Origin: a virus
Lineage: Duplodnaviria > Caudoviricetes
IMG/VR virus record: IMGVR_UViG_3300015607_004160
DNA: 64,000 bases
Strand: one strand, 5' to 3'
A program made the position numbers and the translations under genes. The notes beneath the pieces are model-generated. The model did no database searches. It was not told where the DNA came from and saw nothing but the letters and a program-made list of their open reading frames with translations. Below, piece after piece: positions 2,020 to 60,887 of the stretch (positions within the stretch are counted from its first letter, which is position 1; every line of letters begins with the position of its first letter).

Positions 2020-2799
2020 ATGGAAAAATGGTATGTATATAAACACATAAGAATAGATAAAAATCAAGTTTTTTATATTGGAATAGGATCATCTCCGAAT
2101 TTTGCAAGAGCTTATAGTAAAGATGACAGAAATGATATATGGAAAAAAATAACAAATAAAACGGATTACAAGGTTGAAATTTTATATGAAAATATTTCAT
2201 TTGATGATGCAAAAGATAAAGAAATTCAACTTATTAAAGAATATGGAAAAATTAAAAATGGTGGAACCTTATCCAATATGACAGATGGGGGTGATGGTAT
2301 ATCTGGTTATATACATACGGATGAAACAAAAAAAGTTATAAAAGAAAAAAGAAAATATCAAGTTTTTTCACAAGAAACAAAAGATATATGGTCCAAAAAT
2401 AGAATGGGTAACAAAAAGGCTTTTGGTAAAAAACACTCACCTGAAAAAAATAAAAATAAATCAATAAATCAAAGAGGTAAATTTGGTGGAATAATAATTA
2501 GGACAGATGAAAAAGGAAACTCCATAGAATTCATGGGAATAAAAAATGCTGCTGAATCAATAGGTGTAAGTTATAAAGATATATGGTATGCTTGTATTAA
2601 AAGACACGGTAAGATATATAAAGGATTCTATTGGATGTATAAAGATACAAGGCAACTAAAAAACAATGATGTAATAACAGAAGAATTCTTATATCAAGAG
2701 TATGTTGTTGGTAAAAAATCTGGTGATAAGATAGGAAAGGAATTAAATTGTTCCGGAAATAAAATATATAGACTATTAAAGAAATATAACCTAATGTGA
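2020..2799 (+). CDS. GIY-YIG-type homing endonuclease with NUMOD3/HTH DNA-binding tail
   Basis: YVYKH..FYIGIG..R..E..N catalytic pattern, GYIHTDETKK and GKKHSPE NUMOD-like motifs. Confidence 0.75.
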   Translation: MEKWYVYKHIRIDKNQVFYIGIGSSPNFARAYSKDDRNDIWKKITNKTDYKVEILYENISFDDAKDKEIQLIKEYGKIKNGGTLSNMTDGGDGISGYIHTDETKKVIKEKRKYQVFSQETKDIWSKNRMGNKKAFGKKHSPEKNKNKSINQRGKFGGIIIRTDEKGNSIEFMGIKNAAESIGVSYKDIWYACIKRHGKIYKGFYWMYKDTRQLKNNDVITEEFLYQEYVVGKKSGDKIGKELNCSGNKIYRLLKKYNLM

Positions 2800-3587
2800 T
2801 TAAAATAAAATATTTAGAATTTTTAAAAGAACACAAATTTTGGGGCAAATCTATTTCAGAATTTTTAAGTTGGTTAGATTCAAAATCTAACAAATATTTC
2901 ACAATTTTAGATTGTGAAAGCACAGGATTGCCAAGTGATCCATATGATATACAATTAACACAAGTTTCTTGCTTAGTTGTAAAATATAATTCTAAAACAA
3001 ATACATTCGAAGAGATTGATTCCTTTGATAAAAAAATTAAATTAACATCAGATACTATTTCACTGATGAAGAATCCTAATTCCAGGATAGCAAAAGTTTT
3101 ATCATTTAATCACTATGGTAAATCTGGATTAAAATATCATGAAGAAAAGAATGTACTATCTGAGTTTTTTGATTTTATTTCACAATATGACAGGCCGATG
3201 TTAGTAATTCAAAATGCTGAATTTGATATGAGGTACCTTAATATTAGAAATCCAATAGTCAAATTTGATAATGAGGTTTTAGATACAAAACAAGTTTTAC
3301 AACTATTTTATTTACCAACTTTACAGAAATTGGCTGAAACAGATGAACAAAGTGCTAACACAGTTAGTAAAATTGGAACATCCGAGAGAGATAATGGACT
3401 AATTTCTTCATCTATGGGTAAAATCGGCCCAGCACTTGGTATTAATATGACAGGATACCATGATGCACTTACTGATTGTAGATTGGCAATGCAGATGCTA
3501 CAAAAAATAGTTGATTTCTTAAAAGAGAATAAAGAAGTTGATATAAAGAAATATCAAGGTGAAAGAATAAATACTAAGAGACAGTAG
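2796..3587 (+). CDS. DEDDh 3'-5' exonuclease (N-tag-like start MIKIKYLEFLKE)
   Basis: LDCESTG, QNAEFD, HDALTD motifs. Confidence 0.8.
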   Translation: MIKIKYLEFLKEHKFWGKSISEFLSWLDSKSNKYFTILDCESTGLPSDPYDIQLTQVSCLVVKYNSKTNTFEEIDSFDKKIKLTSDTISLMKNPNSRIAKVLSFNHYGKSGLKYHEEKNVLSEFFDFISQYDRPMLVIQNAEFDMRYLNIRNPIVKFDNEVLDTKQVLQLFYLPTLQKLAETDEQSANTVSKIGTSERDNGLISSSMGKIGPALGINMTGYHDALTDCRLAMQMLQKIVDFLKENKEVDIKKYQGERINTKRQ

Positions 3588-4434
3588 CTTTAATATCACC
3601 TGTAGTAACAACTATAGCTTTTAATTCAAATTTTAATAACATATTTACTATAATATCATCAAATTGACTTTGAGATAATGAGAGTAATTTTTCCTTCTCT
3701 ATAGGTGTGCCATGTCTTTCGCTAGAATATAAAGATCTTCTAGAAGGTGATAATTCTTTTAATTCACTAAATAGATTATCAGAGTCAATGTATATCTCAT
3801 TAATATCTTTATCAAAAAAGAAGTTTTTTATTATTTTTTCTTTTTGTTCTTCAGTAAAATCTAAACTATACATACTAGTTACTCTGCCGAAGATACATAA
3901 ATGAATGTATTTAAAAGATGTTAAAATAAAATCTTTAATACTTTTCATATTTTGTAAAATAGCTAACTTGCCATATCTAGTTTTATGCCATCCATATGAA
4001 AATCTAATAACAAATTCATTGATCTCTGGATCCGGGTCATCCATTTGGCGAAGATCCCATTCATATCCTTGTAAAGGAAACTCTTCATTTGTTATCTTAT
4101 ATAAATAATAATCAATAGCTGCTGTTCTACTAATATTTTCCCTTTCTATTTTTTCTGTGAAATTTGAAACACCATCAACCAACTGATTAACATTTTCTAA
4201 GTCCCATCCATTTTCAGACATATATTCATTTATCTCACTAAAATCTATCTCTGGGTCTAAATCACCTCTATTTTCTTGAGAAACATAACTATAACTACTA
4301 TATGCTCTACTATTTGAATTATGACTAAGGTAATCTTGGCAATCTATTAAAGTTTCACAAAAAATTTTGAAAGCTCTTTCACTAGATAACTTAATAGTAA
4401 TACTCTCAAAGAAAGATTGGTATTTTTTAATCAT
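3574..4434 (-). CDS. Hypothetical protein with N-terminal tag (MIKKYQSFFES)
   Basis: 286-aa ORF with TAATATATA 4 nt upstream. Confidence 0.7.
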   Translation of the reverse strand: MIKKYQSFFESITIKLSSERAFKIFCETLIDCQDYLSHNSNSRAYSSYSYVSQENRGDLDPEIDFSEINEYMSENGWDLENVNQLVDGVSNFTEKIERENISRTAAIDYYLYKITNEEFPLQGYEWDLRQMDDPDPEINEFVIRFSYGWHKTRYGKLAILQNMKSIKDFILTSFKYIHLCIFGRVTSMYSLDFTEEQKEKIIKNFFFDKDINEIYIDSDNLFSELKELSPSRRSLYSSERHGTPIEKEKLLSLSQSQFDDIIVNMLLKFELKAIVVTTGDIKATVS

Positions 4435-4438
4435 ATTC

Positions 4439-5435: not shown

Positions 5436-5996
5436 TTATTGAATTGTAATTTTTAATTGACTTTCTCCCTTATTAATGTATTCACTATCTGATACAAATA
5501 TTTCCTTTTTTGTGAAATTTTTTAAACGATTAATGATATGTATAGAATTAGTAAGTAACTTAGCATACTCTGGAATATTTATATAATTTTTAATAAAAAT
5601 ATTCATTGATTGATCTCTAAATTCGTATTCAATTTCATACCCCTCATCTAAATAACTCAACAGGCAATCTTCCATTTCATAAAATCTAGGAAATCCTTCC
5701 ATTGCTACACTTATTAATTGAAATAATTGTATTAAGGTTTCTCTTAATTTATAATAAATTCCATCCTCTTCTAATTTACCCTTTACCTCTTTGTAGATTT
5801 TATCAATATTATCTTCTTCCAACTCTATAGATAGCCCAATTTCAGGTAAAATAAGTTCTATCTTTCCTATATTTAGTAATATGTCAGACTGAATATTAAC
5901 AGAAAACCACCTAAACGATAAAACTTCCTTTATCATATCCCTTGTTATAAGTTCTTGATTTTCAGACTCATTAAATTTACTCCACTTTAGTATCAT
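5436..5996 (-). CDS. Hypothetical protein with N-terminal tag (MILKWSKFNES)
   Basis: 186-aa ORF; TAATATATA at 6001-6009. Confidence 0.7.
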   Translation of the reverse strand: MILKWSKFNESENQELITRDMIKEVLSFRWFSVNIQSDILLNIGKIELILPEIGLSIELEEDNIDKIYKEVKGKLEEDGIYYKLRETLIQLFQLISVAMEGFPRFYEMEDCLLSYLDEGYEIEYEFRDQSMNIFIKNYINIPEYAKLLTNSIHIINRLKNFTKKEIFVSDSEYINKGESQLKITIQ

Positions 5997-9562: not shown

Positions 9563-10642
9563 TTACTGATTTTGTTCTGGTGTTGGTGTCTTCTCACCCT
9601 CTGGTCTAATTAATGCATCAACTTCAGCTATCTTATCTCTTTGGGCAGTTTGTAAAAAGTCTGTATAATTTTTAACTGCTTTTAGTTTATCCTTATCATT
9701 TTTGATGTTCTTTAAATTATTTGTGATTTCTTCAGCAGTTTTATCCTGCTCTTGTGGAGCAGCACCCAAAATATCTTCATATTTTTTCTTAAAGTTAGTA
9801 CCGTCTTCTGCTTTAAATCCAACATTACCTTGATCATCAAGTGTGTCAATTACTTTAGTTCCGACTCTATCTTTTTGTTCTTCGGGTTTCTTGTTTTCAT
9901 CAAATCCATCCATTTTATACATTACCTTTACCTTCTTATCAAAGAATTCTTTTAATTTTTCATAATTCATTGTAGCAACTTGACCACCTCCTTTTTTAAT
10001 TGCTTCATCATATATTTTCTTCATTTCTTCCTCAGTTAATTCCTTATCTAACTGCATTGACATGTCTTTTTGAAAACTATCAAAGAATTTAAAAGATGTA
10101 TCCTGAGCCACTTTTAATTGTTGTGCATCAGCTTTTCCTTTAACCGCATTATTAATGGCTTCTGTATATTTAGTAGATCCGAATTTATAATTTGGATCTG
10201 ATAATAATCCATAAATTCCTTTCCATCCAGCTTCTTTATTACCAATTAAGATAGATTTGGCAACTGCTGCTGCGGCAGATGATTTTCCCTTATCACCTAT
10301 TGCCGAACCAAAATCTTTTCCTATACCTTCTGCCAATTGAGTTAAACTACTCTTAAATTGTTCCATTATACCGATAACATCTGAAACATTTGTAATATTT
10401 TTATCACGAAGTCCCTTCTGAGCAGAATCAATCGCTTGATTTAAATTACTCATTACAATTCCCTTAATAGAATTTGGATCGTCTTCTTTAAAAGATTTTT
10501 TGATATCATCTACCAAATCCTTAAATGGTGCAGAAAAAGTTTGAAAAAGCTTTCCTAAAGCTCCCTTTACTAACTTTCCAATAAATTCCTCATTTATCAT
10601 TTCATGATTTTTATGAGATTCATATGTTTTGATATATTTCAT
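9563..10642 (-). CDS. Hypothetical protein with N-terminal tag (MKYIKTYES..INEE); candidate internal head protein
   Basis: 359-aa helical ORF; TAATATATA at 10659-10667. Confidence 0.75.
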   Translation of the reverse strand: MKYIKTYESHKNHEMINEEFIGKLVKGALGKLFQTFSAPFKDLVDDIKKSFKEDDPNSIKGIVMSNLNQAIDSAQKGLRDKNITNVSDVIGIMEQFKSSLTQLAEGIGKDFGSAIGDKGKSSAAAAVAKSILIGNKEAGWKGIYGLLSDPNYKFGSTKYTEAINNAVKGKADAQQLKVAQDTSFKFFDSFQKDMSMQLDKELTEEEMKKIYDEAIKKGGGQVATMNYEKLKEFFDKKVKVMYKMDGFDENKKPEEQKDRVGTKVIDTLDDQGNVGFKAEDGTNFKKKYEDILGAAPQEQDKTAEEITNNLKNIKNDKDKLKAVKNYTDFLQTAQRDKIAEVDALIRPEGEKTPTPEQNQ

Positions 10643-12374: not shown

Positions 12375-12817
12375 TTTCCTTTAAATTTTAATTTACCGAC
12401 TACTAAGGCAGGAGTAGTATACAATAATTTTTTTAATTTACCTATATATCTTTTATCAGATATTAATATTTCAAAATCTAGAGATTCACTATCTTTTGAT
12501 AGACCAATATAAGCGGATTCGAATCCATAGTCTTTACCCATACCCTCTATTTCAGCTATTGCGTATTTGCTAATATCAACGGTTTTAAATTTTCGTTTTG
12601 AGTCTGATCTAAAACTATCTAATACATAGTCAACTGCTGCTAATATACTATTAAATTTTTCTTCCTTTCCATTATAATTTCCAACTACAGATACCTTAGT
12701 TATCTTTCTTCGTATATCTCCTATAAAATTGGTTAATCTGTGATCAGCTAAATCCTTTGTTAAGGCCGACGCAACTTTACTAGCACTAAATAACTCATTG
12801 AACTTTTTAATTTTCAT
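12371..12817 (-). CDS. Hypothetical protein with N-terminal tag (MKIKKFNE)
   Basis: AAATATATA at 12823-12831. Confidence 0.7.
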   Translation of the reverse strand: MKIKKFNELFSASKVASALTKDLADHRLTNFIGDIRRKITKVSVVGNYNGKEEKFNSILAAVDYVLDSFRSDSKRKFKTVDISKYAIAEIEGMGKDYGFESAYIGLSKDSESLDFEILISDKRYIGKLKKLLYTTPALVVGKLKFKGK

Positions 12818-12833: not shown

Positions 12834-14843
12834 TTAAAATCCATTATTTTTTAACCAAACGATAAAATCATGAGCATATAAATGTTTTTTACCTTCATAT
12901 TTGCTATCGGTTCCTTTTATTCCATATAAACCATACCCTGGATCAGAAAGTTTCATTTTTTTATGTTCTTCTATTACTCTTTCCTTTAATGACCTATCCC
13001 TAGTATTATTAGCTGAAATTATATTAAAATTTCTTTCATCAATATTAAAATCACATACTTTAGTCCATGTTTTTGTTAGAACCGACATTTGTTTATTTAA
13101 ACTATAAAAGTCTTTTCCACTTGTATTATTTGGGTGTTTTCTACCAAGAGGTTCCGGCTTTTGAGTACATATAATATAATCTTTAGTTTCCATAACTATC
13201 GCCCTTGACCCAACTTGAAATCCTAGACTTTCTAAGTATTCATCATTTAATTGTTTATCTTCTTCATAGTTATACTTATCATTGACCATCATTCTAATAT
13301 TTAACACCTTGTCTGAATATTCTAATTTACCATTATCACAATAGACTGTAATAGTTTTTATTTCTTTTATTCCTTTTAACCTGTTCATAACTTGTTGAAT
13401 ATCAGAATAGAAACTAGCAGATTTTAAAAACTCAATGTGATTCGAATACCCAACTGGTAATCCATATCCTTTAAGTGACATGGTAAAGTAGTAGTTGTTA
13501 TCAGCATAATCGTTAGTTTTGGTATCATTTAGATATAAATTGTAAGTTCCCTGAGCAAATTCACTACGAGGAGGTGCTTTACTCAAACTATCAGTTACAT
13601 ATAAAAAAGCATCTTCAATTTCGGATAATAAGGCATATTTATCTATTTCCTTTGGTATATCATATTCACCAACTCCATATTTATTCAGGAATTTTTTTGC
13701 AAATTCTACATTTCCTTCTCTTTCCTTCTCTTCCTCTTCATGTTCCATAATATCTTTACATATTTCAATAGCTCCATCTATATAAGATTGGTCAAATTTA
13801 GTTATACCAAGCCTTGTTCTTTTTTCATCACTTAACATAGCATATATGTTTGATGAAGAAGATATTGGGTAATAAGCATGATATGGTTCTTTGTATTCTT
13901 CTGGTTGTTTACCAGTTCTCTCTGCATATAGATTTTTAATTATTTGATCAATATCTATATCTAAATCATCATCATCTTCCACATCGTCAGATATCAAATT
14001 TTGGTCTTTTATTTTACCCAAAAACATACTTTTCCATTTTTCTTTTTCAGCTTTTTCTTTGTCCTCTCTTTCCTTTTTAAGCTTAGAAATATGTTGATTT
14101 GCCGCATCAATAGTCATGGCAACTTGGGGTATATTTAATATTCTATTTACAACCTCTTGTATTTGTGGGGCAAATTTTGCATTTTGCCAATCTCCATATC
14201 CTGCCAGGTCTTGGTCTGCACCACCTGCTTCTTCTATGATAAATCCATCTTTATTCCATCCATACCCTGTTCCTATAGTACATAATAGGTTATCTGATAT
14301 GGATCTTCTATTAGAATAAAGAGATTTATATTTATAATTAGGATCTAGTTTAATTTCAACCCAATCTTCAAGTGTTTTGTTAATCTTTAACATCTTCTTT
14401 TCTAGTTCACTCAGTGGTTTGCCATTTTTAATTAAATTAAAAAATGTTTTACTGTCTTTAACATTATCTCTACCATTGGTAACATGCATCGCCCACGCAT
14501 CATAGATTAGATTTTCTATTTCATTGTTTTGGGGATTACACATTTCAATTTTATATTTAGGATTATCTTCACAATCCCAATAACCGGTTTCCTCACCATC
14601 TTCATCTGTAGTTGTAGCTCCATCTCTAAGAATGCCATCACCTCCCCAACAAACTCTACCATCATACCATAAGGTATTATACATATATCCTAGCTTGGCT
14701 AATTGTGGTAAATTCTCTGATTGAGTTAGGTACTCTTGATTTTCCCTAATACAAATAAGTATAGGATCAATTACATTTTCCTCAAATTTGAAATGTTTGT
14801 CATTGACGAAACTTTCATATGTTTTAACTATTTTCTTTGCCAT
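12834..14843 (-). CDS. Large hypothetical protein with N-terminal tag (MAKKIVKTYES)
   Basis: C-terminal ~270 aa is paralogous to the upstream ORF. Confidence 0.75.
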   Translation of the reverse strand: MAKKIVKTYESFVNDKHFKFEENVIDPILICIRENQEYLTQSENLPQLAKLGYMYNTLWYDGRVCWGGDGILRDGATTTDEDGEETGYWDCEDNPKYKIEMCNPQNNEIENLIYDAWAMHVTNGRDNVKDSKTFFNLIKNGKPLSELEKKMLKINKTLEDWVEIKLDPNYKYKSLYSNRRSISDNLLCTIGTGYGWNKDGFIIEEAGGADQDLAGYGDWQNAKFAPQIQEVVNRILNIPQVAMTIDAANQHISKLKKEREDKEKAEKEKWKSMFLGKIKDQNLISDDVEDDDDLDIDIDQIIKNLYAERTGKQPEEYKEPYHAYYPISSSSNIYAMLSDEKRTRLGITKFDQSYIDGAIEICKDIMEHEEEEKEREGNVEFAKKFLNKYGVGEYDIPKEIDKYALLSEIEDAFLYVTDSLSKAPPRSEFAQGTYNLYLNDTKTNDYADNNYYFTMSLKGYGLPVGYSNHIEFLKSASFYSDIQQVMNRLKGIKEIKTITVYCDNGKLEYSDKVLNIRMMVNDKYNYEEDKQLNDEYLESLGFQVGSRAIVMETKDYIICTQKPEPLGRKHPNNTSGKDFYSLNKQMSVLTKTWTKVCDFNIDERNFNIISANNTRDRSLKERVIEEHKKMKLSDPGYGLYGIKGTDSKYEGKKHLYAHDFIVWLKNNGF

Positions 14844-14844: not shown

Positions 14845-15663
14845 TTATAACCCATTATTTTTTAGCCATAATAAAAAATCTGTTGCATAAAGGTCTTTAG
14901 TACCTTCTTTTTTACTTTTGTTTATACCATATGTCCCATAAGACTTATCTGATAATTTCATTTTTTTGTGTTCTTGAAAAATTTGGTGAATAAAATTTTC
15001 CAATTTTTTATCTGAAATCTTATATTCATTTTCATTATACAATAAATTAAATCCCCTCTCGTCTATTGTAAGATCAAATAATTTATTCCATTTTTTATCA
15101 CATATTTCAAGTGATTTCACTTGAGGTTCTATATTATTTACTACATAAATATTATATGAATTTAATTTCATACCGATAAATGTATCTGATATTTCAAATC
15201 CTTTTTTTGATAATTCATTTTCCCTTTTTAACCTTTTACTATACCCATGATTATCATTGACTATCATCTTTATTTCTATATTTGCATCTAAATCATCTAA
15301 ATCAACTTCCTCACTTTCAGGTATATTTGAATAATAGAAAAAAACAAACTTTAGATCCTTTATTAATCGAAGTCGATGTAATACATTTTTAATATCGTTA
15401 TAAAATGCAGCCCCACTAAGTGATTCAATATCATTTGAAAATCCAAAAGGCAATTTATCAATATCACCTAATTTTAGATAAAAGTAATAATTATTATCAT
15501 CATATGCCTCATTTATATATAATGTATATTCCCCAGCTTTCATTTCTGAGGTATAGAAAGATTTAGTTCTCTTAAAAGAATCGGTTAAATAGAGAAAACA
15601 ATCTTCTATTTCACTCAACAACTTATATTTAAATAAATCTCTAACTTTTTTAATTTTAGCCAT
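14845..15663 (-). CDS. Hypothetical protein, paralog of the C-terminal domain of 12834..14843
   Basis: KYKLLSEIEDCFLYLTDS vs KYALLSEIEDAFLYVTDS; IDERGFN vs IDERNFN; DFLLWLKNNGL vs DFIVWLKNNGF. Confidence 0.75.
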   Translation of the reverse strand: MAKIKKVRDLFKYKLLSEIEDCFLYLTDSFKRTKSFYTSEMKAGEYTLYINEAYDDNNYYFYLKLGDIDKLPFGFSNDIESLSGAAFYNDIKNVLHRLRLIKDLKFVFFYYSNIPESEEVDLDDLDANIEIKMIVNDNHGYSKRLKRENELSKKGFEISDTFIGMKLNSYNIYVVNNIEPQVKSLEICDKKWNKLFDLTIDERGFNLLYNENEYKISDKKLENFIHQIFQEHKKMKLSDKSYGTYGINKSKKEGTKDLYATDFLLWLKNNGL

Positions 15664-15683: not shown

Positions 15684-16871
15684 TTATAACATTCGTTTAA
15701 ATTTTTCTATTTCTAATCTTTTAATTTCTGCACCTAGCTGGGCGCCTTGAAATCCCTTATCCATTAACTTTTTTGAATCAACAGATGGTTTATATTTTAA
15801 AAATGCCATATGAATCTTATCTGATATGTTATTAACTTTATACCAGTCTAGTATCACATCATCAGAAACCCTAGCGATTTGTTTTTTCTTGTAAAGGTCA
15901 ATTACATTATTAATATCTAAATTAATTAGGGATATCAAGAATACAATTTTTCTTGCCATATCTACTTCAATCTTAAATTTTTGAACAAGTTTATTTAACA
16001 ATTTATCTGGGTTGTTATTAATTAGTATATTAGATAAATAAACTTCTAAAAATTTAGAGTCTTTAATATCTTCATTGATATTAACTCCTGGTAAAATTTG
16101 AGGCCACATATTATATTCATTTAATAGTGTTAAATAAATAGAAAAATTTTTACATTGGGCAAACGATTTTTTAACTTCATCCCATATTCTTTCTGCTGAT
16201 ACATCTTCTTTTGGACCAACACCTATTAGTCTATTATCTGATTTTATAGCATCTGAAGTCTGTTTGTCAATTTTTCCATTTGATCTGGCAGTAAATCTAA
16301 AAATACGGCAAATTCTTAATCTATCTTCCTTGAATCTCTCAATGGGATTTCCAACTGCTTTAATAACATTATTTTTTATATCATTAACACCACCAACAAT
16401 ATCTACAATTTCCTTTTTTTCTATATTATAAAATAAAGCATTAATAGTAAGATCCCTTCTCATACAATCGTCCTCTATCGTTATATGATTACCCATTTCG
16501 ACCTTTTGATCATTCCCTTTTGTATCCCTACCCATAGATATATCCTTTCTATAAGATGCAATTTCATAGCCATTTGGCTCATCTTTTGTATAGACTCTTA
16601 TCACACCAAAATTTTTACCTTGCTCATCAGATACATTAAATTCGTTTAATATTTTTTTGGACTCACTCGGCAATGCGTTTGTAACTAAATCATAATCCTT
16701 TGGTGTTTTACCTTGTAGAAAATCCCTGACAGCCCCACCTACAACAAATATATTTTTTCCATTTTTTATATACTGATTTGAGATATTAATTATATCATAT
16801 GGTAAGGGCATTTCTATTTTAATAGAATTATTTTCTAGTAAAAAATCTTTATAATTTTTAATTTTTTTCAT
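15684..16871 (-). CDS. cca: tRNA nucleotidyltransferase (CCA-adding)/poly(A) polymerase family, N-tagged
   Basis: VGGAVRD..DYD, RRDLTINAL, EDRLRICR; starts MKKIKNYKDFLLEN. Confidence 0.88.
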   Translation of the reverse strand: MKKIKNYKDFLLENNSIKIEMPLPYDIINISNQYIKNGKNIFVVGGAVRDFLQGKTPKDYDLVTNALPSESKKILNEFNVSDEQGKNFGVIRVYTKDEPNGYEIASYRKDISMGRDTKGNDQKVEMGNHITIEDDCMRRDLTINALFYNIEKKEIVDIVGGVNDIKNNVIKAVGNPIERFKEDRLRICRIFRFTARSNGKIDKQTSDAIKSDNRLIGVGPKEDVSAERIWDEVKKSFAQCKNFSIYLTLLNEYNMWPQILPGVNINEDIKDSKFLEVYLSNILINNNPDKLLNKLVQKFKIEVDMARKIVFLISLINLDINNVIDLYKKKQIARVSDDVILDWYKVNNISDKIHMAFLKYKPSVDSKKLMDKGFQGAQLGAEIKRLEIEKFKRML

Positions 16872-17818: not shown

Positions 17819-18277
17819 ATGGATAATTCTGAAATAATAGTTAGGAAATTTGAGAGCTTCAATGATAATACTTGGGAAGAGGATTTACTTTCACTATATG
17901 ATATTTTTTGTGAATTAGAAGATACTAAAATATGTCGGATTGATTACCAAGGGGGGTATAGAACATCCAGTGGAAGTAATAGTTATACTTGCTTTTTAAA
18001 AAATGAGAAAATAGAAGGCGACAAAGATCATATTAATTATATGATCAGAGTCAATTCTAAATCCTTATTAAGAGTTAGTTTACTCGAAATAGAATATAAA
18101 GGAGGATATTCACCATTTAGCCAAACAAATGCTCCTTCTTTTTATGCGGAAGATGCAGATATATTTCTTCAAATAATGAGATATGTGGATGCTGCTAAAA
18201 AAAGAATGCCTAAGTACAATCTTGGAATAACATTGGATGAAAATGTAGTTTACCTTGACTTTTTGGAAAACAGATAA
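17819..18277 (+). CDS. Hypothetical protein with N-terminal tag (IVRKFESF)
   Basis: 152-aa ORF. Confidence 0.7.
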   Translation: MDNSEIIVRKFESFNDNTWEEDLLSLYDIFCELEDTKICRIDYQGGYRTSSGSNSYTCFLKNEKIEGDKDHINYMIRVNSKSLLRVSLLEIEYKGGYSPFSQTNAPSFYAEDADIFLQIMRYVDAAKKRMPKYNLGITLDENVVYLDFLENR

Positions 18278-25460: not shown

Positions 25461-25918
25461 ATATTTAAGTTTCGACTAATTTTAATAAAATTAACTGATT
25501 CCGAATAATATCCGTTTGACTCACCCAACCATCTTAAAGTAACATATCCTTTAATTGTAGCCAAATTATAAAATGTCCATGTGTATGAGTCATTGCCATA
25601 CCCCACATTATCTGGCTCATCACCTACATCCTCAGAAGACTTAAGTATTGGATTACCAATTAAATCTTCTAGATCTCCTACAATATCATATAATCGAACA
25701 TACTCACAACAGTCTTGATCGTGATACATACAATAATTATTACCACTTTCACAATAAAATGCAATTTCTGTACTATTCCTATTTATTACAATGTCAAAAA
25801 TCGTTTCACCAATTAAAGATGATACCTCACATCTTCCTAATTTTCTATAAACTAGTGAATGTTGGTGCCCAATAAATTCGTCATTAGATTTTGATTCGTA
25901 ATATTTTATATATTTCAC
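25457..25918 (-). CDS. Conserved phage protein with N-terminal tag (MKYIKYYES)
   Basis: YHDQDCCE..TWTFY..W.GESNGYYSE motif set, familiar from phage proteins. Confidence 0.7.
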   Translation of the reverse strand: MKYIKYYESKSNDEFIGHQHSLVYRKLGRCEVSSLIGETIFDIVINRNSTEIAFYCESGNNYCMYHDQDCCEYVRLYDIVGDLEDLIGNPILKSSEDVGDEPDNVGYGNDSYTWTFYNLATIKGYVTLRWLGESNGYYSESVNFIKISRNLNI

Positions 25919-33030: not shown

Positions 33031-33690
33031 ATGAAACATCTAAAATCGTATAGTCAGCACAATGAAGGAATCGGAAGTTCTCTATTAAAAGCAGGATTAG
33101 CCGGATCTTTATTATTTAATTCTCCTGAGGTTAAATCTCAACCAAATAATCCAGTTACTACTCTAAGTAAAGATACGTCAGGTAGATCTGAAGTTAAGAT
33201 GGTGAATCATCTATATAATTTAAGATTAGAGAAATCTAATGATACATCATTAAATGCTATTTTGGACGAAATAAAAGGAAATTTAAATACAAAAGATTCC
33301 ACTAAATTTATTGACTTATTTAATAAATTATCTTCATACTTGGAATCACAATATGGATATAAAATCGAAGCCAGAAAAATTGAGGATTTAGATGGTGAAG
33401 AATTAAAAAGGGATCCAGGTAAGTTTAATCTTTTTGAGATATTGGGGTGGTTAGGCTCTATTTGTTTAGCTTTATGTGGAGTTCCACAGGCTATAATGTC
33501 TTATAAAGACAGGCACTCACATGGCATATCGTGGGGATTTTTGATATTATGGGCGTTTGGAGAACTTTTTGCACTTGCTTATGTATATGATAAGTTAGAC
33601 CTACCTCTATTATTAAATTATGCTGTAAATATTTTAATTGTCGGAGTTATTTTATACTTTAAAGTTAGACCTGAGGTTGATCCAGAATAA
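33031..33690 (+). CDS. N-tagged protein with C-terminal PQ-loop (SemiSWEET-like) membrane domain
   Basis: MKHLKSYSQHNEG; GWLGSICLALCGVPQAIMSY..GISW..LLLNY, three hydrophobic helices. Confidence 0.7.
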   Translation: MKHLKSYSQHNEGIGSSLLKAGLAGSLLFNSPEVKSQPNNPVTTLSKDTSGRSEVKMVNHLYNLRLEKSNDTSLNAILDEIKGNLNTKDSTKFIDLFNKLSSYLESQYGYKIEARKIEDLDGEELKRDPGKFNLFEILGWLGSICLALCGVPQAIMSYKDRHSHGISWGFLILWAFGELFALAYVYDKLDLPLLLNYAVNILIVGVILYFKVRPEVDPE

Positions 33691-37905: not shown

Positions 37906-38136
37906 ATGAAATACCTTAAAAAGTTTAATGAATCCTTATCTGAAATTGAGCTAGTGAAAGGGATAAAAGTCGAATCAGAACATGGAAACATCTATGAAGA
38001 GATAGATTCTTATTTAGAATCTTTCAATATTGGAATGCCTTGGTCCAAAATTGAATTCTATGGAAAAATAGCAGAATCCCACTTAAAAGAGATTCCTGAT
38101 TATTATACAAGATTAGAAAAAATGGAAAGAGAATGA
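37906..38136 (+). CDS. Small N-tagged protein (MKYLKKFNES), DUF5661-like
   Basis: GIKVESEH..IA..HLKEIPDYYTRL. Confidence 0.7.
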   Translation: MKYLKKFNESLSEIELVKGIKVESEHGNIYEEIDSYLESFNIGMPWSKIEFYGKIAESHLKEIPDYYTRLEKMERE

Positions 38137-39674
38137 AATATTTAAGAAAATATAATGAAAATCGCGGATATGAATTACTAAAAGATCCCGGCGTTGACGA
38201 TTATAGACATGATAAATTAATGTCTGTTAGTAATAGAACCATACAGCAAGTTAGTGATATAGTTGGAATTGATAAATTTGTAATAGATGAAATTGTTTAT
38301 AGGGGGATCGACGATGAAATGAAGAAAAGCCTGCTTTGGTCCATAGCTGCCAGGTATCTACAAAAATATAAATTTATTAGAACACGTATATACCCCTTAG
38401 ATATTGAAATATATGAATATGAAGACGAATGGTTTGAATTGTCATGCACAAATTTACGTGATATTGCATCTGGTCCACTAATATATTGGTGTGATCAAAT
38501 GGAAGGAATGACTAATTTCCTAAATGATATAAAGAATAATGCAATAAACGAAGGAATTTTCTCAAAAGCTGCAGAATTATTAAGATATAATAGGAAGGCA
38601 GATCAATTAATCAAAAAGTATATTAAAATGATATATGATGATTATAATAAAAACAAAGATTTATTCCGGGTATCTATAGTCGAGGATTCAGAATATATTG
38701 ATTTTAAATATATGATAACAACAGGAGATCTAAATAATGTCCAATTGGGAAATCGGGATGAGAATGCCATAACAATAGAATTGACTTTTATTGAAAACAC
38801 ATTTAAGTGGAGTAGTGATACCACACAGGCAAGACTTGAAGTTAGAAAATTTAAATCATATCAAGGAGACCTTTTAATTGTTGGAAGAAATATAAAGACT
38901 GGCGAGATCATTGAAAATGAAAACGGGATTAAGAGTAAGGATGCAATATCTTATGTTAATACCCCATCTGGTGAGGTGAGTAAAATAATTAAATTTTTTA
39001 TAAGAGAATTTAAGTCAAAATATCCAACAATGAGCAAGTATTATGGAGCGAGGTCTATACTAAAAATTGATACCAAATTAAGAGATAAAATGGAGTCCGA
39101 TTCTGATAAAAAAAGGATGTATGATAGAGAGAAATATGAAGAAGAAAGAGAGAGAAAAAAACAATTTATTCTTTCTAAATTAGACACAATGAAAATGAAA
39201 GAGGAAGATATTATTGATTTTTTTATAGAAGTTGAGGATGAAGTTGATATTCAAATATCCCATGAAAGGAGCATATACATTGATAGAACTATATATACTG
39301 CTAAGATATTTAAATCACTAAAAGATCCAATAGTAGATGAATTTTCATTAGATGGATTATTAAATAAAAATAAATTAGAATTTGACGAGAGTGATATACC
39401 TCTTAAAAAGAATATACCATATCATAAATTAGTGATAGGTTTATTGGATGCAGATTATTCTCCAGATGAATTTAAAAAGAAAATTGATAAGGTAATTAAT
39501 AGATTAAAATTTGGATTAAAATTGGAAGCATCAGAGATGATGATTGATAAGAATCCTTTTTCTGGCGATCATGGGCTACATAACAGCTATCTCTCATATG
39601 AGTGTAATGATGAGATATCTAGAATGTTTACCAGTAAAAAAGCTGTTTATATCATATACCTATCAGAAATTTAA
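38133..39674 (+). CDS. Hypothetical protein with N-terminal tag (MKYLRKYNEN) and internal AINEG site
   Basis: 513-aa ORF. Confidence 0.72.
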   Translation: MKYLRKYNENRGYELLKDPGVDDYRHDKLMSVSNRTIQQVSDIVGIDKFVIDEIVYRGIDDEMKKSLLWSIAARYLQKYKFIRTRIYPLDIEIYEYEDEWFELSCTNLRDIASGPLIYWCDQMEGMTNFLNDIKNNAINEGIFSKAAELLRYNRKADQLIKKYIKMIYDDYNKNKDLFRVSIVEDSEYIDFKYMITTGDLNNVQLGNRDENAITIELTFIENTFKWSSDTTQARLEVRKFKSYQGDLLIVGRNIKTGEIIENENGIKSKDAISYVNTPSGEVSKIIKFFIREFKSKYPTMSKYYGARSILKIDTKLRDKMESDSDKKRMYDREKYEEERERKKQFILSKLDTMKMKEEDIIDFFIEVEDEVDIQISHERSIYIDRTIYTAKIFKSLKDPIVDEFSLDGLLNKNKLEFDESDIPLKKNIPYHKLVIGLLDADYSPDEFKKKIDKVINRLKFGLKLEASEMMIDKNPFSGDHGLHNSYLSYECNDEISRMFTSKKAVYIIYLSEI

Positions 39675-42595: not shown

Positions 42596-43386
42596 AATTC
42601 ACAACATCGATTGTTTAGAAGGGATGAAAATGATGGATAAGGAATCTGTCGATTTAGTCATTACCTCTCCGCCATATTCTAATATGAAAGAGTATGTTGA
42701 TTTTAAAGGAATACACCCAGATGATTACGTTGAATGGTTCATGCCGATAATTAAAGAAATTTATAGAATTCTTAAACCAACTGGATCTTTTATCTTAAAC
42801 ATTAATGACAAAAGTCAATGATGGATTTAGGCATCCATATGTTTATGATTTGATATCAACTATTCACAAAGAAACGGAATTCAAAATGTATGATAGATTA
42901 TTTTGGAATAAAAAGAAGTCTATTCCTAATAAACATAGATTTGGAGATAAGGTTGAATATATATTCTGGTTTACTAAGGGGAAGGGGTTTAAAATTTATA
43001 TGGATGAGATGAGAACAGAATATAATAAATCCTCTATCAATAGAATGAAATATAAATTAAAAACAAGACATGCTCGCACTGAGGATAATCAAAATGCTAA
43101 TAATTATAAAGAATGGTCACCAAATTTAAAAGGTGCACTGCCCTCGACATTAATTGATATCTCTTCTGAGGTTAAAAGAGTATCAACTAAACATGTTGCA
43201 GTATTTCCCGAAAAGTTAATTGAATATTTTATAAAAGGTTCAACCAATGAAGGAGATGTTGTTTTAGACCCATTTATGGGTAGTGGAACTACTGGAGTTG
43301 TTTGTCACAAATTGAATCGTCAATGGGTGGGATTTGAAATTTCAAAGGACTATATAATAGAAGCAGAATCTAGAATATTTAGATAA
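42588..43386 (+). pseudogene. N4-cytosine/N6-adenine DNA methyltransferase (beta class), split by +1 A at ~42811 (likely sequencing indel)
   Basis: TSPPY in the first ORF; HVAVFP and DPFMGSGTT in the second; removing one A joins NINDK-VNDGFR. Confidence 0.85.
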
Positions 43387-43389: not shown

Positions 43390-43899
43390 TTATTTAAAGA
43401 AAACTAATATTGATATTTTATCTTTTGAACCATAACTTACCTTTGTAGTAAATCCATAATATTCACATCTAGATGTTAGTGTTTTAATAGCCTTATATCT
43501 CTCGATCATCATGTCTATTGTACTTGAGTCAAAAATTTCATCCTCGGCCCATTTTGGTAAATCCTTTTGACTTTCATTTTTAAATTTAGTAAATGATATT
43601 ATTGACTTCATTGATAATATCCATTTATCAGGAATTCTACCATCCTTAAAGTACTGTCTTATTTTTTTACTACCAACCATTTGTGTCGAATTAACAGAGT
43701 GTGTATTATTAAGATTACTAATAGTTACATATCCTTTGGATATAACTACCTCGTCGACTTTACCTGAATATGATTCCTTAAACGTTTGAAATAAATCTAA
43801 TATCTCGGTAAATTCTGCTGGTAATTTATCTACACTTTTACCCAATAAATAGGTATTTTCAACTGACTCATTTATAATAATATCAGAAAACTTTTTCAT
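43390..43899 (-). CDS. Hypothetical protein with N-terminal tag (MKKFSDIIINES)
   Basis: 169-aa ORF. Confidence 0.7.
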   Translation of the reverse strand: MKKFSDIIINESVENTYLLGKSVDKLPAEFTEILDLFQTFKESYSGKVDEVVISKGYVTISNLNNTHSVNSTQMVGSKKIRQYFKDGRIPDKWILSMKSIISFTKFKNESQKDLPKWAEDEIFDSSTIDMMIERYKAIKTLTSRCEYYGFTTKVSYGSKDKISILVFFK

Positions 43900-45313: not shown

Positions 45314-46843
45314 ATGAAAGTTTACAAATATAGTGAATTATTTGAGGCTAACCTATCTATTCAAGATTTGGAAAAAAGAAGTAGAGAAAATGGATCGAGA
45401 GGTGATGTTCTAGTTAAAAAATTGATCGATGGTGATCAACTAACTATCAATAAAAAAGGACAAAGAAAAAACATATCAGTTACGAACTCAGAAGATATTG
45501 TCTCGAATATTATAGATGACCGAGGCAAATATGACTCTGATTTAGGTGAGGTGATTTTTAAACCTAATTATAGATATGAAGATGTCATAGATGGTGATGA
45601 TGGTGAAAGATACAAACTAAATGATATCGAAAAAACATCTGACTTTGGAAGCAGTCGTGGTAGTAGCTTAGGCACACTAGAAACAAGAGCCGTGGAATCA
45701 TTACAATGTTTAATATTGGCATATAGACAGTTTAAAAGAACCCACATTAAAGAATCAGATTTTATTGATATACTACGTCTTAGTGATACTGAATTTAATG
45801 GGTATTTAGAATATGTCGATGCAATGAATATAACAAAAGATTTATTTGAAAATTATGTATCAGAATGGGGAATAACATTTTTAAAAACTGCAAATGCTTT
45901 ATTTTCTAAAAAGATTAAAATAACACCAAGAAATAAAATTGATATTATTTTAAGACCAGACATTCAATACAAATTCTACCAAGTATCTAGTAAAAATGGG
46001 GTTTGTGAAGCAATTAAAAGAGTATATCACATGTCAAAAGTGCCTTCAATATCTAAGTGGAATCCAGCGGATATATGGGCAGTTGATATTAATAATGAGC
46101 AAGAAATAATAAATGAAATTGAAAAGCATAAAAGTGTTTATGCATTAAATAAGGTAATAGATTACTATTTTGATAATAGACAGTTAGTTGGTATCTCACT
46201 CAAAAAGGTAGATGATAAAGATGAAAAAATAAAACTAGTTATTAATAAAATGACTAAACCACCAAAATATACATTTAGTGGTATTAAATTATCAGAAGAT
46301 GCTCTGTCAACAGCTAGTTTAAGAATTGAAGTTAATACATCCAGTGAAGTTGGATTTGGAAATGCTCCCTCTTACATGACAGTTAGATCATTTAGTGGAA
46401 GTAAAATTCAAAATATTAGTGGAGAAGTTGCTGGAAAGTCAGCTAGACAGGGAAAAATTAGTTTAGTTAAAATTAATGAGATTCTCAGAAAACACATTGG
46501 TGAAACAGTTCCTACAGTTTCAGAAATAGAGGAATATGGTTGGAACGATGAAGAGTTAAAAAGTGAAATTGAGGCTATTAATAATCGAATAGTTCGCAGA
46601 TATGGACATGTTGCTCCATCTAATAGGCAATATGTTGAAAATCGAATAAGACTCGTTTCAAAATATCAAGCTTTATTTTTAGCTTGGATATTTATAGAGA
46701 ATGAAGAAAAAAGAAAAAACAGAAGAGCTGAGTTAACTGTTGTCGACCAAACAGTTGAAGAAATGTTTCACTATGCGTTGTCCATAATGTTTGATATAAC
46801 TAAATCCGGAAGAACTCCAAAATACGTTAGAGTAGTTGACTAA
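45314..46843 (+). CDS. N-tagged protein with PD-(D/E)XK-like nuclease motif
   Basis: MKVYKYSELFEA; E..Q, KWNPADIW..LVGISLKK. Confidence 0.6.
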   Translation: MKVYKYSELFEANLSIQDLEKRSRENGSRGDVLVKKLIDGDQLTINKKGQRKNISVTNSEDIVSNIIDDRGKYDSDLGEVIFKPNYRYEDVIDGDDGERYKLNDIEKTSDFGSSRGSSLGTLETRAVESLQCLILAYRQFKRTHIKESDFIDILRLSDTEFNGYLEYVDAMNITKDLFENYVSEWGITFLKTANALFSKKIKITPRNKIDIILRPDIQYKFYQVSSKNGVCEAIKRVYHMSKVPSISKWNPADIWAVDINNEQEIINEIEKHKSVYALNKVIDYYFDNRQLVGISLKKVDDKDEKIKLVINKMTKPPKYTFSGIKLSEDALSTASLRIEVNTSSEVGFGNAPSYMTVRSFSGSKIQNISGEVAGKSARQGKISLVKINEILRKHIGETVPTVSEIEEYGWNDEELKSEIEAINNRIVRRYGHVAPSNRQYVENRIRLVSKYQALFLAWIFIENEEKRKNRRAELTVVDQTVEEMFHYALSIMFDITKSGRTPKYVRVVD

Positions 46844-57530: not shown

Positions 57531-58607
57531 ATGATTAGAAGATATTACGAGTATCTTTTGGAAAGTTCACCTGGCATAGATCTAAAGTATTTAGCACTAG
57601 ATTGGGATGATAATATTCTACATATGCCAACCTTTATTCACTTAGACCATCTAGTAGATGGTGAATGGGTGCATGAGCCTGTTTCCACTGCGAAGTTTGC
57701 GACTGTTAGAAATGATAAAGTAAACTGGAGGTACAGAGATGATTCATTTTCCGAATTTAGAGATTTTGGGCCTAGAGGTGAAACAGCTTTCCTTGAAGAC
57801 ACCATTTCTGCTATAAATAATGGAGATTTTGGACCTAGTTGGGATGCATTTATTGAATATTTATCTCAAGGCACTATCTTTGCTATAATTACAGCAAGAG
57901 GGCATGAACCAAATGCAATTAAAATGGCAGTAGAATATATTATAGATAATATATTAACTGAAAATCAAAAACATAGTTTATATGCACATTGTTTAAAGTT
58001 TGCATATTTATTTGGAGCTGATTATGACTCATATGATAGAATACCAAGAGGACAGCTTAGTAAAACCAAACTAATTCAAGACTATTTAAATAGTTGTGAT
58101 TATTATGGAGTTTCCTCTAATTTCTGTATTAAGAAATTTGGATTAGGCGATGCTGGCAATCCAGAAAAAGGAAAAGAAATGGCAATTAAAGAATTTACTA
58201 AACAAGTAAATGAATTTGGTCAAAAAATTGGTGCTAAAAGTGTTTCCCTAGGATTCTCTGATGATGATGTTAAAAATGTTAAACACATTGAAAAACTATT
58301 TAGAGATGAATTATCATTAAAATATTTAATCAATTATAATATTTATGATACATCCAAAAGAGAAATAAAAGGTGGGGTTAGAACTAAAATAGATCCTCAA
58401 GTAGTAGAATCAACAACATCTTGGGGGAATGGTGCTGGAACTTGGGGAACAGATAGTAGTGTTATTCCATTCACAAAATGGAATAACATGACTCAAAATC
58501 TTTATCCAAATAGCAAAGATTTTTCAAATGATGATTATCATAATCAATTTAAAAATCAGATAGGTCAATTAAAAGATCTAACCGTTGTAGATAAAAAAAA
58601 AGTATAA
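57531..58607 (+). CDS. HAD-superfamily-like protein with N-terminal tag (MIRRYYEYLLES)
   Basis: LDWDDNI, IITARGH, K, GFSDDD..N. Confidence 0.7.
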   Translation: MIRRYYEYLLESSPGIDLKYLALDWDDNILHMPTFIHLDHLVDGEWVHEPVSTAKFATVRNDKVNWRYRDDSFSEFRDFGPRGETAFLEDTISAINNGDFGPSWDAFIEYLSQGTIFAIITARGHEPNAIKMAVEYIIDNILTENQKHSLYAHCLKFAYLFGADYDSYDRIPRGQLSKTKLIQDYLNSCDYYGVSSNFCIKKFGLGDAGNPEKGKEMAIKEFTKQVNEFGQKIGAKSVSLGFSDDDVKNVKHIEKLFRDELSLKYLINYNIYDTSKREIKGGVRTKIDPQVVESTTSWGNGAGTWGTDSSVIPFTKWNNMTQNLYPNSKDFSNDDYHNQFKNQIGQLKDLTVVDKKKV

Positions 58608-58610: not shown

Positions 58611-58892
58611 ATGAGAAACATTCTAAAATTCGAAGGTTTCGTAAAAGAAAACTACGAAATAAAAGAGGAACTAAACGTGGATGAAACAAAAGTTTCACAT
58701 TCTTCTTTAGATGATTTAATTAAACAACTTTCTGAATTACAGAATGTTTATGATATAAATGATTTAAAATCAATGAATGATACACAATTAAAGAATTTAT
58801 ATAGTGAGGTTTTAAATGCTAAAGAAGAAGATTCTAAATCCGAAATTGAACCAACTTCTGAGTTAGAATATGAGTCTAAAAGTTGGAAATAA
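58611..58892 (+). CDS. Hypothetical protein with N-terminal tag (MRNILKFEGFVKEN)
   Basis: 93-aa ORF. Confidence 0.7.
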   Translation: MRNILKFEGFVKENYEIKEELNVDETKVSHSSLDDLIKQLSELQNVYDINDLKSMNDTQLKNLYSEVLNAKEEDSKSEIEPTSELEYESKSWK

Positions 58893-58903
58893 ATTTGATT
58901 AAA

Positions 58904-58937
58904 TAAAAACCCCTTCTGATTGGAAGGGGTTTTTTAT
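58904..58937. terminator. Bidirectional intrinsic terminator
   Basis: AAAAACCCCTTC-TGATTG-GAAGGGGTTTTT between convergent genes. Confidence 0.85.
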
Positions 58938-60887
58938 TTATAATATTCTATATTTGTTTGTCGCTAAATCTTTTTTAAGTTCATTAAGTAATCCTGCACA
59001 TTCAGGGCAAAGTTCTTTATCACTTCCTTTAGGTCTATCTCCGGTGCCATTACAAACATCACATTTAACTTGACCGCCTTTACAAGTTTTACATTTGCCA
59101 AGTTTTCCACTCCCTTTACAGTCTTTACACTCTCCCTTGCTTCCACTTCCATTACAATCTTTACACTCTATACTACCCCAATTACATTTTGTACATCTTT
59201 TAGTACCTTGTCCTTTACATGTCCTACATTCAATTTGACCGGGGTCGTCTTCATCTTTACAAGTTTTACAAACTATTACACCTTCACCATCACATTGTTT
59301 ACAGGGTACCTCAAGTCTATTACGCCACGTTTTATCCCAACCTACTACTGAACATGATTTACAACGACATCCTTCTCTCCCAATTTCACCACTTGATGCT
59401 TTTCCGGCACCGCCACAGTCTGGACATTTAACCCTTCTAGTCCCCTTACCCCATTTTCTAGTTATTTCACCTACACCTTTACATCCAGTACAAGTAATTG
59501 GCTCTCCTTTACAATCAGCACAAGTAACATATGATTGACCATCACACGCCTTACATTCACCCATATCACCTTCACCATGACAGGTATTACATTCTTTGTG
59601 TCCATTCCCATCACAATCAGCACAATTTATATCTCCCTCCCCGTTACAGTCTGTACAAGTAACATCTCCATCTCCATCACAAGTAATACATTTTATATCT
59701 CCGCCTCCATCACACTTTGTACATATTATATTACCACCACCTCGACATATTGTACAGATCACCTCACCATCTCCATCACATTTTTTACATTCCGTCCCAT
59801 CATCATCATCATATCCTGTTCCATCACAATTGCTACAAGATTCATGGTTACCTTCGGTGTCACACATAATAAATCCTTCATCAGCATCATCGTCATCATC
59901 ATCAATAGTAAACCCAACATTACTTATCATTGAATCACCATCTGAAAAAGATAGTGTATCTACAAATGGGTATTTACTAAAATGTAATCTATGAAGTTTA
60001 ACTATTAATTTACCAAAAATTATTTGATCTCCATATTTAAATATTAATCCTAATCTTTCATCTGAAGTCATTTTTTGTTTATAAATCCATCCTTTTTCTT
60101 TAGCATAATTTATAAATTTAATAACATCAGAATCATTAGCAGTGTATACTCTATCCATAAAATATTCTGATTCACACTCAAATTTAGTTTGATCAGGTGT
60201 TTTATATAATTCTTTTTTGAAAATTTTCCATACAAGAGCTCTTCCCAATACTTTACCTTGTTCATCAAGATAAACTAATAATTGGCAAGCTTCTGGATTC
60301 TTTGTGTAAATTTTAAAGTATCTCTGACAATCATTACCTCTCATACAAGATCCACCCAATGATCCAGTATTTTTCGAATAGTTGCTATATAAATAATATT
60401 TCTTAATTAGTGATCCACTAACTAATTCAAATTTTTTAGATGTGTCTACTTTTGATGATTTATAGATATTAACGAAGTTTTCAATATCCTTATCACTAAC
60501 TGTTTTACCTAACTCAGTTAGAATTGCTCTTGCAAATCTACCAACTTTAACTTCATTTCTACTTTTAGACGTAAATATTAACTCTGGATCACCGCCCGCA
60601 TGCATTATCTTATTAGCTCCCCTATCTGCCATAAAGCTAACGGTATCCTCTTTATCTGTTATATCAACCCAGTTTTGTGGTAGATCCTTATCAATAAATG
60701 TTTTATCGGAAAATGCTTTTAAAAGGTCAATAGCGATATGATTATTATTTATACCTGATAATCGGGTAAGAAACTTATCAGATGCCATTAAATTTCCTTC
60801 AAGTAATAATTTAGCAATTTTACTTTCTAATAAGAAATTGTCAAATTTTAATATACTCTCATGAGTATGATTAGTATTTTTACACAT
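58938..60887 (-). CDS. N-tagged protein: SCM/GRALxW/MDRVY domain + 22 CxxC (DnaJ-type CxxCxGxG) repeats
   Basis: ILKFDNFLLES; GSCMRG..GRALVW..FMDRVY..YPFVDT; repeats from CSNC to CPEC. Confidence 0.8.
   Translation of the reverse strand: MCKNTNHTHESILKFDNFLLESKIAKLLLEGNLMASDKFLTRLSGINNNHIAIDLLKAFSDKTFIDKDLPQNWVDITDKEDTVSFMADRGANKIMHAGGDPELIFTSKSRNEVKVGRFARAILTELGKTVSDKDIENFVNIYKSSKVDTSKKFELVSGSLIKKYYLYSNYSKNTGSLGGSCMRGNDCQRYFKIYTKNPEACQLLVYLDEQGKVLGRALVWKIFKKELYKTPDQTKFECESEYFMDRVYTANDSDVIKFINYAKEKGWIYKQKMTSDERLGLIFKYGDQIIFGKLIVKLHRLHFSKYPFVDTLSFSDGDSMISNVGFTIDDDDDDADEGFIMCDTEGNHESCSNCDGTGYDDDDGTECKKCDGDGEVICTICRGGGNIICTKCDGGGDIKCITCDGDGDVTCTDCNGEGDINCADCDGNGHKECNTCHGEGDMGECKACDGQSYVTCADCKGEPITCTGCKGVGEITRKWGKGTRRVKCPDCGGAGKASSGEIGREGCRCKSCSVVGWDKTWRNRLEVPCKQCDGEGVIVCKTCKDEDDPGQIECRTCKGQGTKRCTKCNWGSIECKDCNGSGSKGECKDCKGSGKLGKCKTCKGGQVKCDVCNGTGDRPKGSDKELCPECAGLLNELKKDLATNKYRIL

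Follow-up and report, generated by a model that had tools for sequence, protein, structure and literature searches.

The window analysed in the current study, i.e. the whole stretch of 64,000 nucleotides (nt) from the IMG/VR record IMGVR_UViG_3300015607_004160 (Duplodnaviria; Caudoviricetes), has a G+C content of 28% and is densely coded, and open reading frame (ORF) calling gave 86 genes. These include genes for EF-G, both subunits of a T4-type topoisomerase II, an adenylate kinase and a thioredoxin-reductase-like protein. About one in six of the window genes begins with a shared peptide of 9–14 residues, hereafter called the tag, which is the subject of this analysis.

Among public phage records, only two uncultured phage genomes, of 642 kb and 634 kb, matched the window at the DNA level, and a comparison of head genes groups these two records with genomes of 636 kb and 735 kb. 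The window comes from a huge phage that belongs to the Mahaphage group, a clade whose predicted hosts are Bacteroidetes (PMC7162821). Many untagged window genes are preceded by a Bacteroidetes-type TAnnTTTG element, which fits a host from this phylum. The 642-kb genome (LR756502.1, 976 genes) served as the main relative and its whole sequence was analysed; it provided a protein match for 39 of the 86 window genes. The results on head genes reported below come from the genomes of relatives.

The core of the tag is basic and amphipathic, and consists of Met, Lys/Arg, any residue, Leu/Ile, Lys/Arg, any residue and Tyr/Phe. A second form has the sequence Met-Ile-Lys-Lys-Tyr/Trp-x-x-Phe. The end of the tag lies 0–4 residues past the core and is composed of a hydrophobic residue, any residue, Glu, and then Ser, Asn or Ala. 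An initial annotation of the window had described the tag by the pattern MKx[IL]Kx[FY]..E and placed it on about 18 proteins. All 17 N-terminal peptides quoted there were found at the starts of the respective genes. None of them matches the pattern when it is read literally, because the spacing of the Glu varies and the pattern is off by one. The number of tagged proteins was a generous one: eight starts are strict matches, seven are plausible (the general form fits, or the start of the ortholog is tag-like), and two are weak.

Strict matches were defined by two patterns derived solely from LR756502.1 and then applied to the window, which avoids fitting to the window itself. These patterns match 8 of the 86 N-termini in the window and none of 363 internal Met positions (Fisher p = 1.4e-6), while shuffling of the N-terminal residues gave a mean of 0.04 matches. 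A looser pattern, [ILV][KR][KR]?x[FYW]x(0-5)E[SNA] starting within the first 15 residues, is present in 9 of the 86 genes versus 0.34 expected from its internal rate, and shuffled N-termini yielded a mean of 0.5 and a maximum of 4 over 2000 shuffles. The enrichment at N-termini, which had been proposed as a test of the annotation, is strong by the internal-rate, internal-Met and shuffle controls.

In LR756502.1, the strict patterns match 90 of the 976 genes, compared to 9 of 3484 internal Met positions (p = 3e-50), and 97 genes start with the bare seven-residue core. Counts across genomes were made with a DNA pattern for the core and a reversed-pattern control. There were 66 matches (control 4) in the 634-kb genome, 50 (control 4) in the 636-kb genome, 28 (control 8) in a 462-kb genome, 9 (control 6) in the 735-kb genome and 9 (control 3) in Lak-A2. 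A search of IMG/VR with one tagged protein as query found no related loci, and a literature search found no published description of the tag.

The tagged proteins are diverse, as had been claimed: those in the window are not paralogs of each other, and show similarity only to an untagged neighbour or a distant gene. When 65 genes of LR756502.1 selected by a narrower pattern were compared with the tag removed, they fell into 54 clusters without BLAST similarity. Pfam and PHROG searches of the tagged proteins mostly gave no match, and only about 7 of 91 tagged proteins of LR756502.1 have any Pfam domain, the domains being lysozyme, PQ-loop, SET, HNH, Toprim and a carbohydrate-binding module. A paralogous family was considered as the source of the tag and rejected, since the tagged proteins are mutually dissimilar both in the window and in LR756502.1.

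Selection of genes by the core only (the 97 genes of LR756502.1) allowed the end of the tag to be assessed separately. In 81 of the 97, a Glu occupies position 8, 9 or 11. The first Glu is followed by Ser in 40 of the 93 genes that have a Glu (43%, versus 7% in the background), and otherwise by Glu, Asp, Asn, Ala or Gly, and the residue two positions before it is hydrophobic in about 80%. The Glu of the tag is a real constraint. The commonest endings are Tyr/Phe-Asn-Glu-Ser, Ile-Phe-Glu-Ser and Leu-Leu-Glu-Asn. The tag is basic, and the 25 residues that follow it are acidic.

The DUF7448 protein of the window has thousands of homologs, and more than 100 of the best of these begin directly at the domain. 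The tag and a linker of 10–25 residues occur only in the tag-carrying members, in at least three different versions. In an AlphaFold model based on the alignment of the homologs, residues 1–14 had a pLDDT (predicted local distance difference test) below 50, the coil extended to residue 22, and the confident fold began at about residue 23. In other tagged proteins, too, the Pfam domain starts beyond the tag. The tag is a portable module on unrelated proteins. A signal peptide or lipoprotein signal was considered as well and rejected, as there is no hydrophobic core of at least 10 residues, and the tags are 9–14 residues long, charged and followed by acidic linkers.

Table 1. Tagged genes and other features of the window (aa, amino acids; tags graded as described in the text; GTG, start codon other than ATG)
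Feature	Gene or ORF	Strand	Tag	Grade	Remarks
DEDD-type exonuclease, 263 aa	2796-3587	+	2796..2831	plausible	GTG start
Orphan protein, 286 aa	3574-4434	-	4402..4434	strict	MIKKYQSFFES
Orphan protein, 186 aa	5436-5996	-	5964..5996	strict	MILKWSKFNES; proximal ATATATA motif
Orphan protein, 359 aa	9563-10642	-	10616..10642	strict	9 residues, MKYIKTYES; ortholog of relative likewise tagged
Orphan protein, 148 aa	12371-12817	-	12791..12817	plausible	MKIKKFNE; atypical Leu after Glu
Orphan protein, 673 aa	12834-14855	-	14811..14843	plausible	KIVKTYES; offset 4 residues; true start probably Met at 14843
CCA-adding/poly(A) polymerase family enzyme, 395 aa	15684-16871	-	16830..16871	plausible	14 residues; Pfam domain begins at residue 41; start of relative's ortholog tag-like
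Orphan protein, 152 aa	17819-18277	+	17834..17857	weak	IVRKFES; atypical, tag-like, offset 5 residues
DUF7448 protein, 153 aa	25457-25918	-	25892..25918	strict	MKYIKYYES; GTG start
PQ-loop membrane protein, 219 aa	33031-33690	+	33031..33069	strict	ortholog tagged
DUF5661 protein, 76 aa	37906-38136	+	37906..37935	strict	10 residues, MKYLKKFNES
Orphan protein, 513 aa	38133-39674	+	38133..38162	strict	10 residues, MKYLRKYNEN
Orphan protein, 169 aa	43390-43899	-	43864..43899	weak	tag-like; ends Ile-Asn-Glu-Ser, without basic/aromatic core
Protein, 509 aa	45314-46843	+	45314..45349	plausible	tag-like; matches PHROG 1462 (unknown function)
Orphan protein, 358 aa	57531-58607	+	57531..57566	strict	ortholog tagged
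Orphan protein, 93 aa	58611-58892	+	58611..58652	plausible	tag-like
Protein with DnaJ-type zinc-finger motifs, 649 aa	58938-60887	-	60822..60854	plausible	ILKFDNFLLES; tag-like, residues 12-22 (offset 11)
Untagged paralog of 673-aa protein	14845-15663	-			neighbouring gene
Untagged paralog of 649-aa protein	18291-20333	+
Adenylate kinase	24888-25460	-			N-terminal extension of 11-14 residues
EF-G	22486-24456	-			full-length, bacterial-type
Sugar-nucleotidyl transferase (Pfam NTP_transferase)	3-608 and 623-817	-			split in two ORFs
N6/N4 DNA methylase	42588-42821 and 42805-43386	+			two overlapping ORFs in different frames
Examples of genes behind the TAATATATA(G/A) motif	4434(-), 5996(-), 12817(-), 17724(-), 18291(+), 33031(+), 45314(+), 60887(-)
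Genes behind Bacteroidetes-type TAnnTTTG (second promoter class)	6043, 6941, 20738(-), 27875(-), 31514(-), 32021, 35352(-)

For several of the genes in table 1, the relative provided additional information. The exonuclease gives a Pfam match to this enzyme family, and its ortholog in LR756502.1 retains a tag-like start. In the 649-aa protein, the tag is preceded by a Cys/His-rich lead of 11 residues (60855-60887), and both lead and tag are kept in the LR756502.1 ortholog, indicating that the tag is internal in this protein.

Two tagged proteins of the window have untagged paralogs. The C-terminal half of the 673-aa protein is paralogous to its untagged neighbour (40% identity), and the 649-aa protein shares a domain with a more distant gene (41% identity). 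The C-terminal part of the untagged HD-domain protein corresponds, in LR756502.1, to a tagged protein of its own. Such sharing of domains between tagged and untagged proteins points to a shuffling of domains and tags. The N-terminal extension of the adenylate kinase has the core of the tag without a Glu site; possible explanations are a tag that has degenerated or cannot be cleaved, and chance.

The initial annotation had compared the tag with the capsid-targeting sequence (CTS) of phage T4, and had suggested a search for a gp21-like prohead protease. Such a protease is present in five related genomes, within a T4-type module of portal, scaffold and gp23-like capsid genes. In LR756502.1, the portal protein is of T4 type (PF07230, 1e-58) and the capsid protein belongs to the gp23 family (4e-28). 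Between their genes lies a gene for a protease-scaffold fusion of 699 residues, 225272-227371 (L014:5272-7368). The first 200 residues or so of the fusion match the head maturation protease (PHROG 207, 6e-28; PF03420 weak) and align with T4 gp21, with the His, Ser and Asp columns invariant. The same head module was found in four more genomes and in Tenacibaculum phage PTm1, where its counterpart is annotated as prohead core scaffolding protein and protease.

The protease-scaffold protein ranked first among 493 proteins for the density of hydrophobic-x-Glu-[SNAG] sites, with 24 such sites. Its scaffold part contains eleven tandem repeats of 14 residues, each with a Tyr-Ile/Leu-Ala-Glu site that is mostly followed by Asn, and these repeats are kept in LR745206.1, LR756504.1 and LR756501.1. 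The scaffold protein gp22 of T4 has the same density of sites, and is a known substrate of gp21 that is chopped up (PMC5694885). The junction of protease and scaffold has a hydrophobic-Asn-Glu-Ser site that is conserved and that aligns with Ile-Thr-Glu-Ser of T4 gp21. The capsid propeptide of the relatives is homologous to that of T4 gp23, which is cut at several sites (PMC5694885), and has a conserved Ile/Met/Leu-x-Glu-Asn about 45 residues in, aligned with Ile-Phe-Glu-Asn of gp23.

In form, the end of the tag agrees with these predicted sites of scaffold, junction and capsid propeptide, and it probably is the motif that the head protease of this phage group cuts. The annotation had also suggested looking for the motif on capsid and scaffold proteins of the phage; what was found at the sites in the relatives was the signature of the tag's end. 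Each scaffold repeat resembles the second form of the tag, and it may be speculated that the tag mimics a unit of the scaffold.

Internal proteins of T4 reach the prohead core by means of an N-terminal signal of 10–20 residues that is removed by gp21, and about 1000 molecules of these proteins are packaged per head (PMC5694885, PMC3012670). The signal has been described on IPI, IPII, IPIII and Alt (Mullaney and Black 1996, as cited in PMC5694885). In the T4 record, ipII and ipIII carry the classical signal at their start. The starts of ipI and of gp61.1, Met-Lys-Thr-Phe-Lys-Glu-Phe, fit the core of the megaphage tag. The second form of the tag (e.g. the one at 4434, which is the variant nearest to the signal of ipII and ipIII) and a variant in LR756500.1 (462 kb) share Tyr, Phe, Ile, Glu and Ala with ipII and ipIII. 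The gene for gp61.1 (L063:467-631(-)) adjoins the primase gene of T4 and encodes a hypothetical protein of 54 residues, whose CTS-like start is nearly identical to that of ipI and ends Ile-Lys-Glu.

The tag resembles the T4 signal in being a short N-terminal peptide (9–14 versus 10–20 residues) on unrelated proteins, most of which are fast-evolving orphans in both systems. Both peptides follow the scheme Met-Lys-x-hydrophobic-x-x-aromatic and end with hydrophobic-x-Glu before a small residue. The relatives likewise have the T4 set of portal, gp21-like protease, site-studded scaffold and gp23-like capsid protein. There are also differences. In T4 a handful of proteins carry the signal, whereas the tag is found on about 10% of the genes, i.e. 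about 90 per 640-kb genome and 8–15 in the window. The tag occurs in several length classes, and its Glu is usually followed by Ser or Asn, unlike the Ala of ipII and ipIII. Moreover, the tagged cargo is acidic on average and includes enzymes and a membrane protein, and the protease of the relatives is fused to its scaffold of about eleven tandem 14-residue repeats.

Although some variants of the tag agree with the T4 CTS at up to 6 of 10 positions, the patterns trained on the megaphages miss ipI, ipII and ipIII. Homology is therefore not claimed, and the comparison rests on likeness of form and on genomic context. The comparison made in the initial annotation held with respect to form, head module, protease-site match and a promoter motif shared with head genes. 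We consider it likely that the tag is either related to the T4 capsid-targeting sequence and expanded in use, or a close analogue of it in function. What is new is chiefly the scale on which the tag is used, since a T4-type signal as such is known.

A second comparison can be made with phiKZ-like giant phages (phiKZ, 201phi2-1 and SPN3US), in which propeptides of head and ejection proteins are cut after Glu by a gp21-like protease (PMC5694885, PMC7411985). These are also giant phages with many different head proteins, a T4-related protease and a three-residue Glu motif. Their propeptides, in contrast, are long (often more than 100 residues) and specific to each protein, with no shared short tag, and their cleavage motif has Ser, Ala or Gly two positions before the Glu, where the tag has a hydrophobic residue. 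The number of processed head proteins documented per phage is roughly ten or fewer, with eight in SPN3US (PMC7411985). A precedent for a membrane protein such as the tagged PQ-loop protein exists in SPN3US, in which one packaged ejection protein has a transmembrane segment (PMC5694885).

The timing of expression was assessed from promoter motifs. In five genomes, the genes for portal, protease and capsid protein have an ATATATA motif in front of them. In LR756502.1, this motif stands before 59% of the tagged genes and 23% of the untagged genes (p = 4e-12), and the host-type TAnnTTTG is depleted at tagged genes (2% versus 10%). The portal gene of this genome is immediately preceded by two tagged genes. 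In the window, the ATATATA motif is present at about 10 of the 17 tagged genes and often ends 4 nt before the ATG, as at 4434. The TAATATATA(G/A) motif ends 4–6 nt before the ATG of many window genes (examples in table 1). In LR756502.1, the distance from motif to start has two modes, 4–6 nt and 17–27 nt, and the shorter distance suggests that the late mRNAs are probably leaderless.

In the proposed pathway, the tagged proteins would be made late, together with the head proteins, and the core of the tag would dock them onto the scaffold within the assembling prohead. The gp21-like protease would then cut after the Glu of the tag, as it is predicted to do in the scaffold and the capsid propeptide. 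The mature proteins would stay in the head, and would probably enter the host with the DNA. In its full form, the proposal is that one T4-derived address loads about a hundred mostly orphan proteins (about 10% of the coding capacity), docks them on a scaffold with about eleven protease-site repeats, and delivers them with the DNA as an arsenal; towards this broader statement we lean only slightly.

Several points weigh against an assignment to capsid targeting. Docking, packaging, cleavage after the Glu and injection are steps that we infer, and the protease-site argument relies on predicted sites in the head genes of relatives. Some of the cargo is odd for a phage head, namely the PQ-loop membrane protein, the CCA-adding enzyme and the DEDD exonuclease in the window, and an HNH nuclease, a Toprim protein and a lysozyme in LR756502.1. 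Tagged proteins exceed the rest of the proteome in acidity, while IPII and IPIII of T4 are basic DNA-binding proteins. To our knowledge, the use of about 10% of all genes for head cargo is without precedent. The strict patterns trained on LR756502.1 do not match the T4 signals. The 735-kb relative has the scaffold repeats yet few tags of the main form (9 matches, 6 in the control). PTm1, the closest cultured relative tested, showed no expansion of the tag; it has two tag-like genes, which are annotated merely as hypothetical.

Among the other explanations, the tag might address late proteins to a different destination, such as the inner membrane (by means of an amphipathic helix), another phage assembly, a chaperone, or a system for degradation or stabilisation. 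The tag is short, basic and amphipathic, and one tagged protein is membranous. Furthermore, a second, C-terminal tag in the same genomes indicates that peptide addresses are in use. In LR756502.1, this C-terminal tag never joins the N-terminal one (0 of 90 tagged proteins versus 55 of 886 others). A different destination does not predict an invariant Glu followed by a small residue in the same form as the sites of scaffold, junction and propeptide, nor does it predict the resemblance to the T4 signal, and we regard it as unlikely.

The tag could also be a propeptide that is simply removed by a protease, either the head protease or another Glu-specific one, and that keeps late proteins inactive or marks them for processing or turnover without any targeting to the capsid. 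The match of the tag's end to the predicted protease sites, which is the best-supported feature, would be explained in this way, and timed activation would be sensible for enzymes such as the tagged lysozyme, nucleases and CCA-adding enzyme. The conserved basic and aromatic core, which is the most constrained part and resembles the targeting core of T4, would be left without an explanation. In T4 assembly, proteases of the gp21 type act within the prohead, and a substrate of such a protease must therefore be located there. A role as propeptide only is quite improbable in our judgement.

Conservation at the level of nucleic acid or expression was considered too, either as a 5' module for leaderless late mRNAs or as a recombination cassette of promoter and first codons. 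The position of ATATATA 4–6 nt before the ATG of many tagged genes would fit, as would A/T-rich first codons. Synonymous codons within the tag, however, are used as in the genome as a whole, with Ser encoded by both TCN and AGY codons, and in orthologs of the window and LR756502.1 (35–60% identity) the pattern of the tag is kept while individual residues drift, which together indicate selection on the peptide. The three tag lengths (9, 10 and 12–13 residues) preserve the peptide pattern and not the nucleotide register. In addition, 94 of the 116 genes of LR756502.1 with the motif 4–6 nt upstream are untagged, and the 60 nt upstream of the start lack an ATATATA in about half of the tagged genes. 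This explanation is very improbable. That the tag arose by chance from an AT-rich composition and Lys-rich N-termini, in which Lys, Ile, Tyr, Asn, Phe and Glu are all common, is refuted by the agreement of the shuffle, internal-rate and internal-Met controls and of the relatives, and retains next to no probability.

Should the tag indeed direct loading into the head, sequence alone would suffice to list the proteins that uncultivated giant phages inject. The tagged proteins would act before phage genes are expressed, making them likely factors of anti-defence and host takeover, and the role of some of the orphan genes of huge phages would be easier to explain. Furthermore, a mechanism that in T4 is known to serve a handful of proteins would prove to be scalable to about a tenth of a 600-kb genome. 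Tag and protease would also form a compact natural pair for the packaging of foreign proteins into large capsids.

Three further genes of the window were noted. The N6/N4 DNA methylase is encoded by two ORFs in the window, while its LR756502.1 ortholog is a single ORF of 265 residues; the split is a frameshift, an error or a programmed shift. The two ORFs of the sugar-nucleotidyl transferase cover profile positions 1–54 and 72–242 and are separated by 14 nt, which could be due to a frameshift, an assembly error or an intervening element. The EF-G of the window has 70% identity to the copy in LR756502.1.

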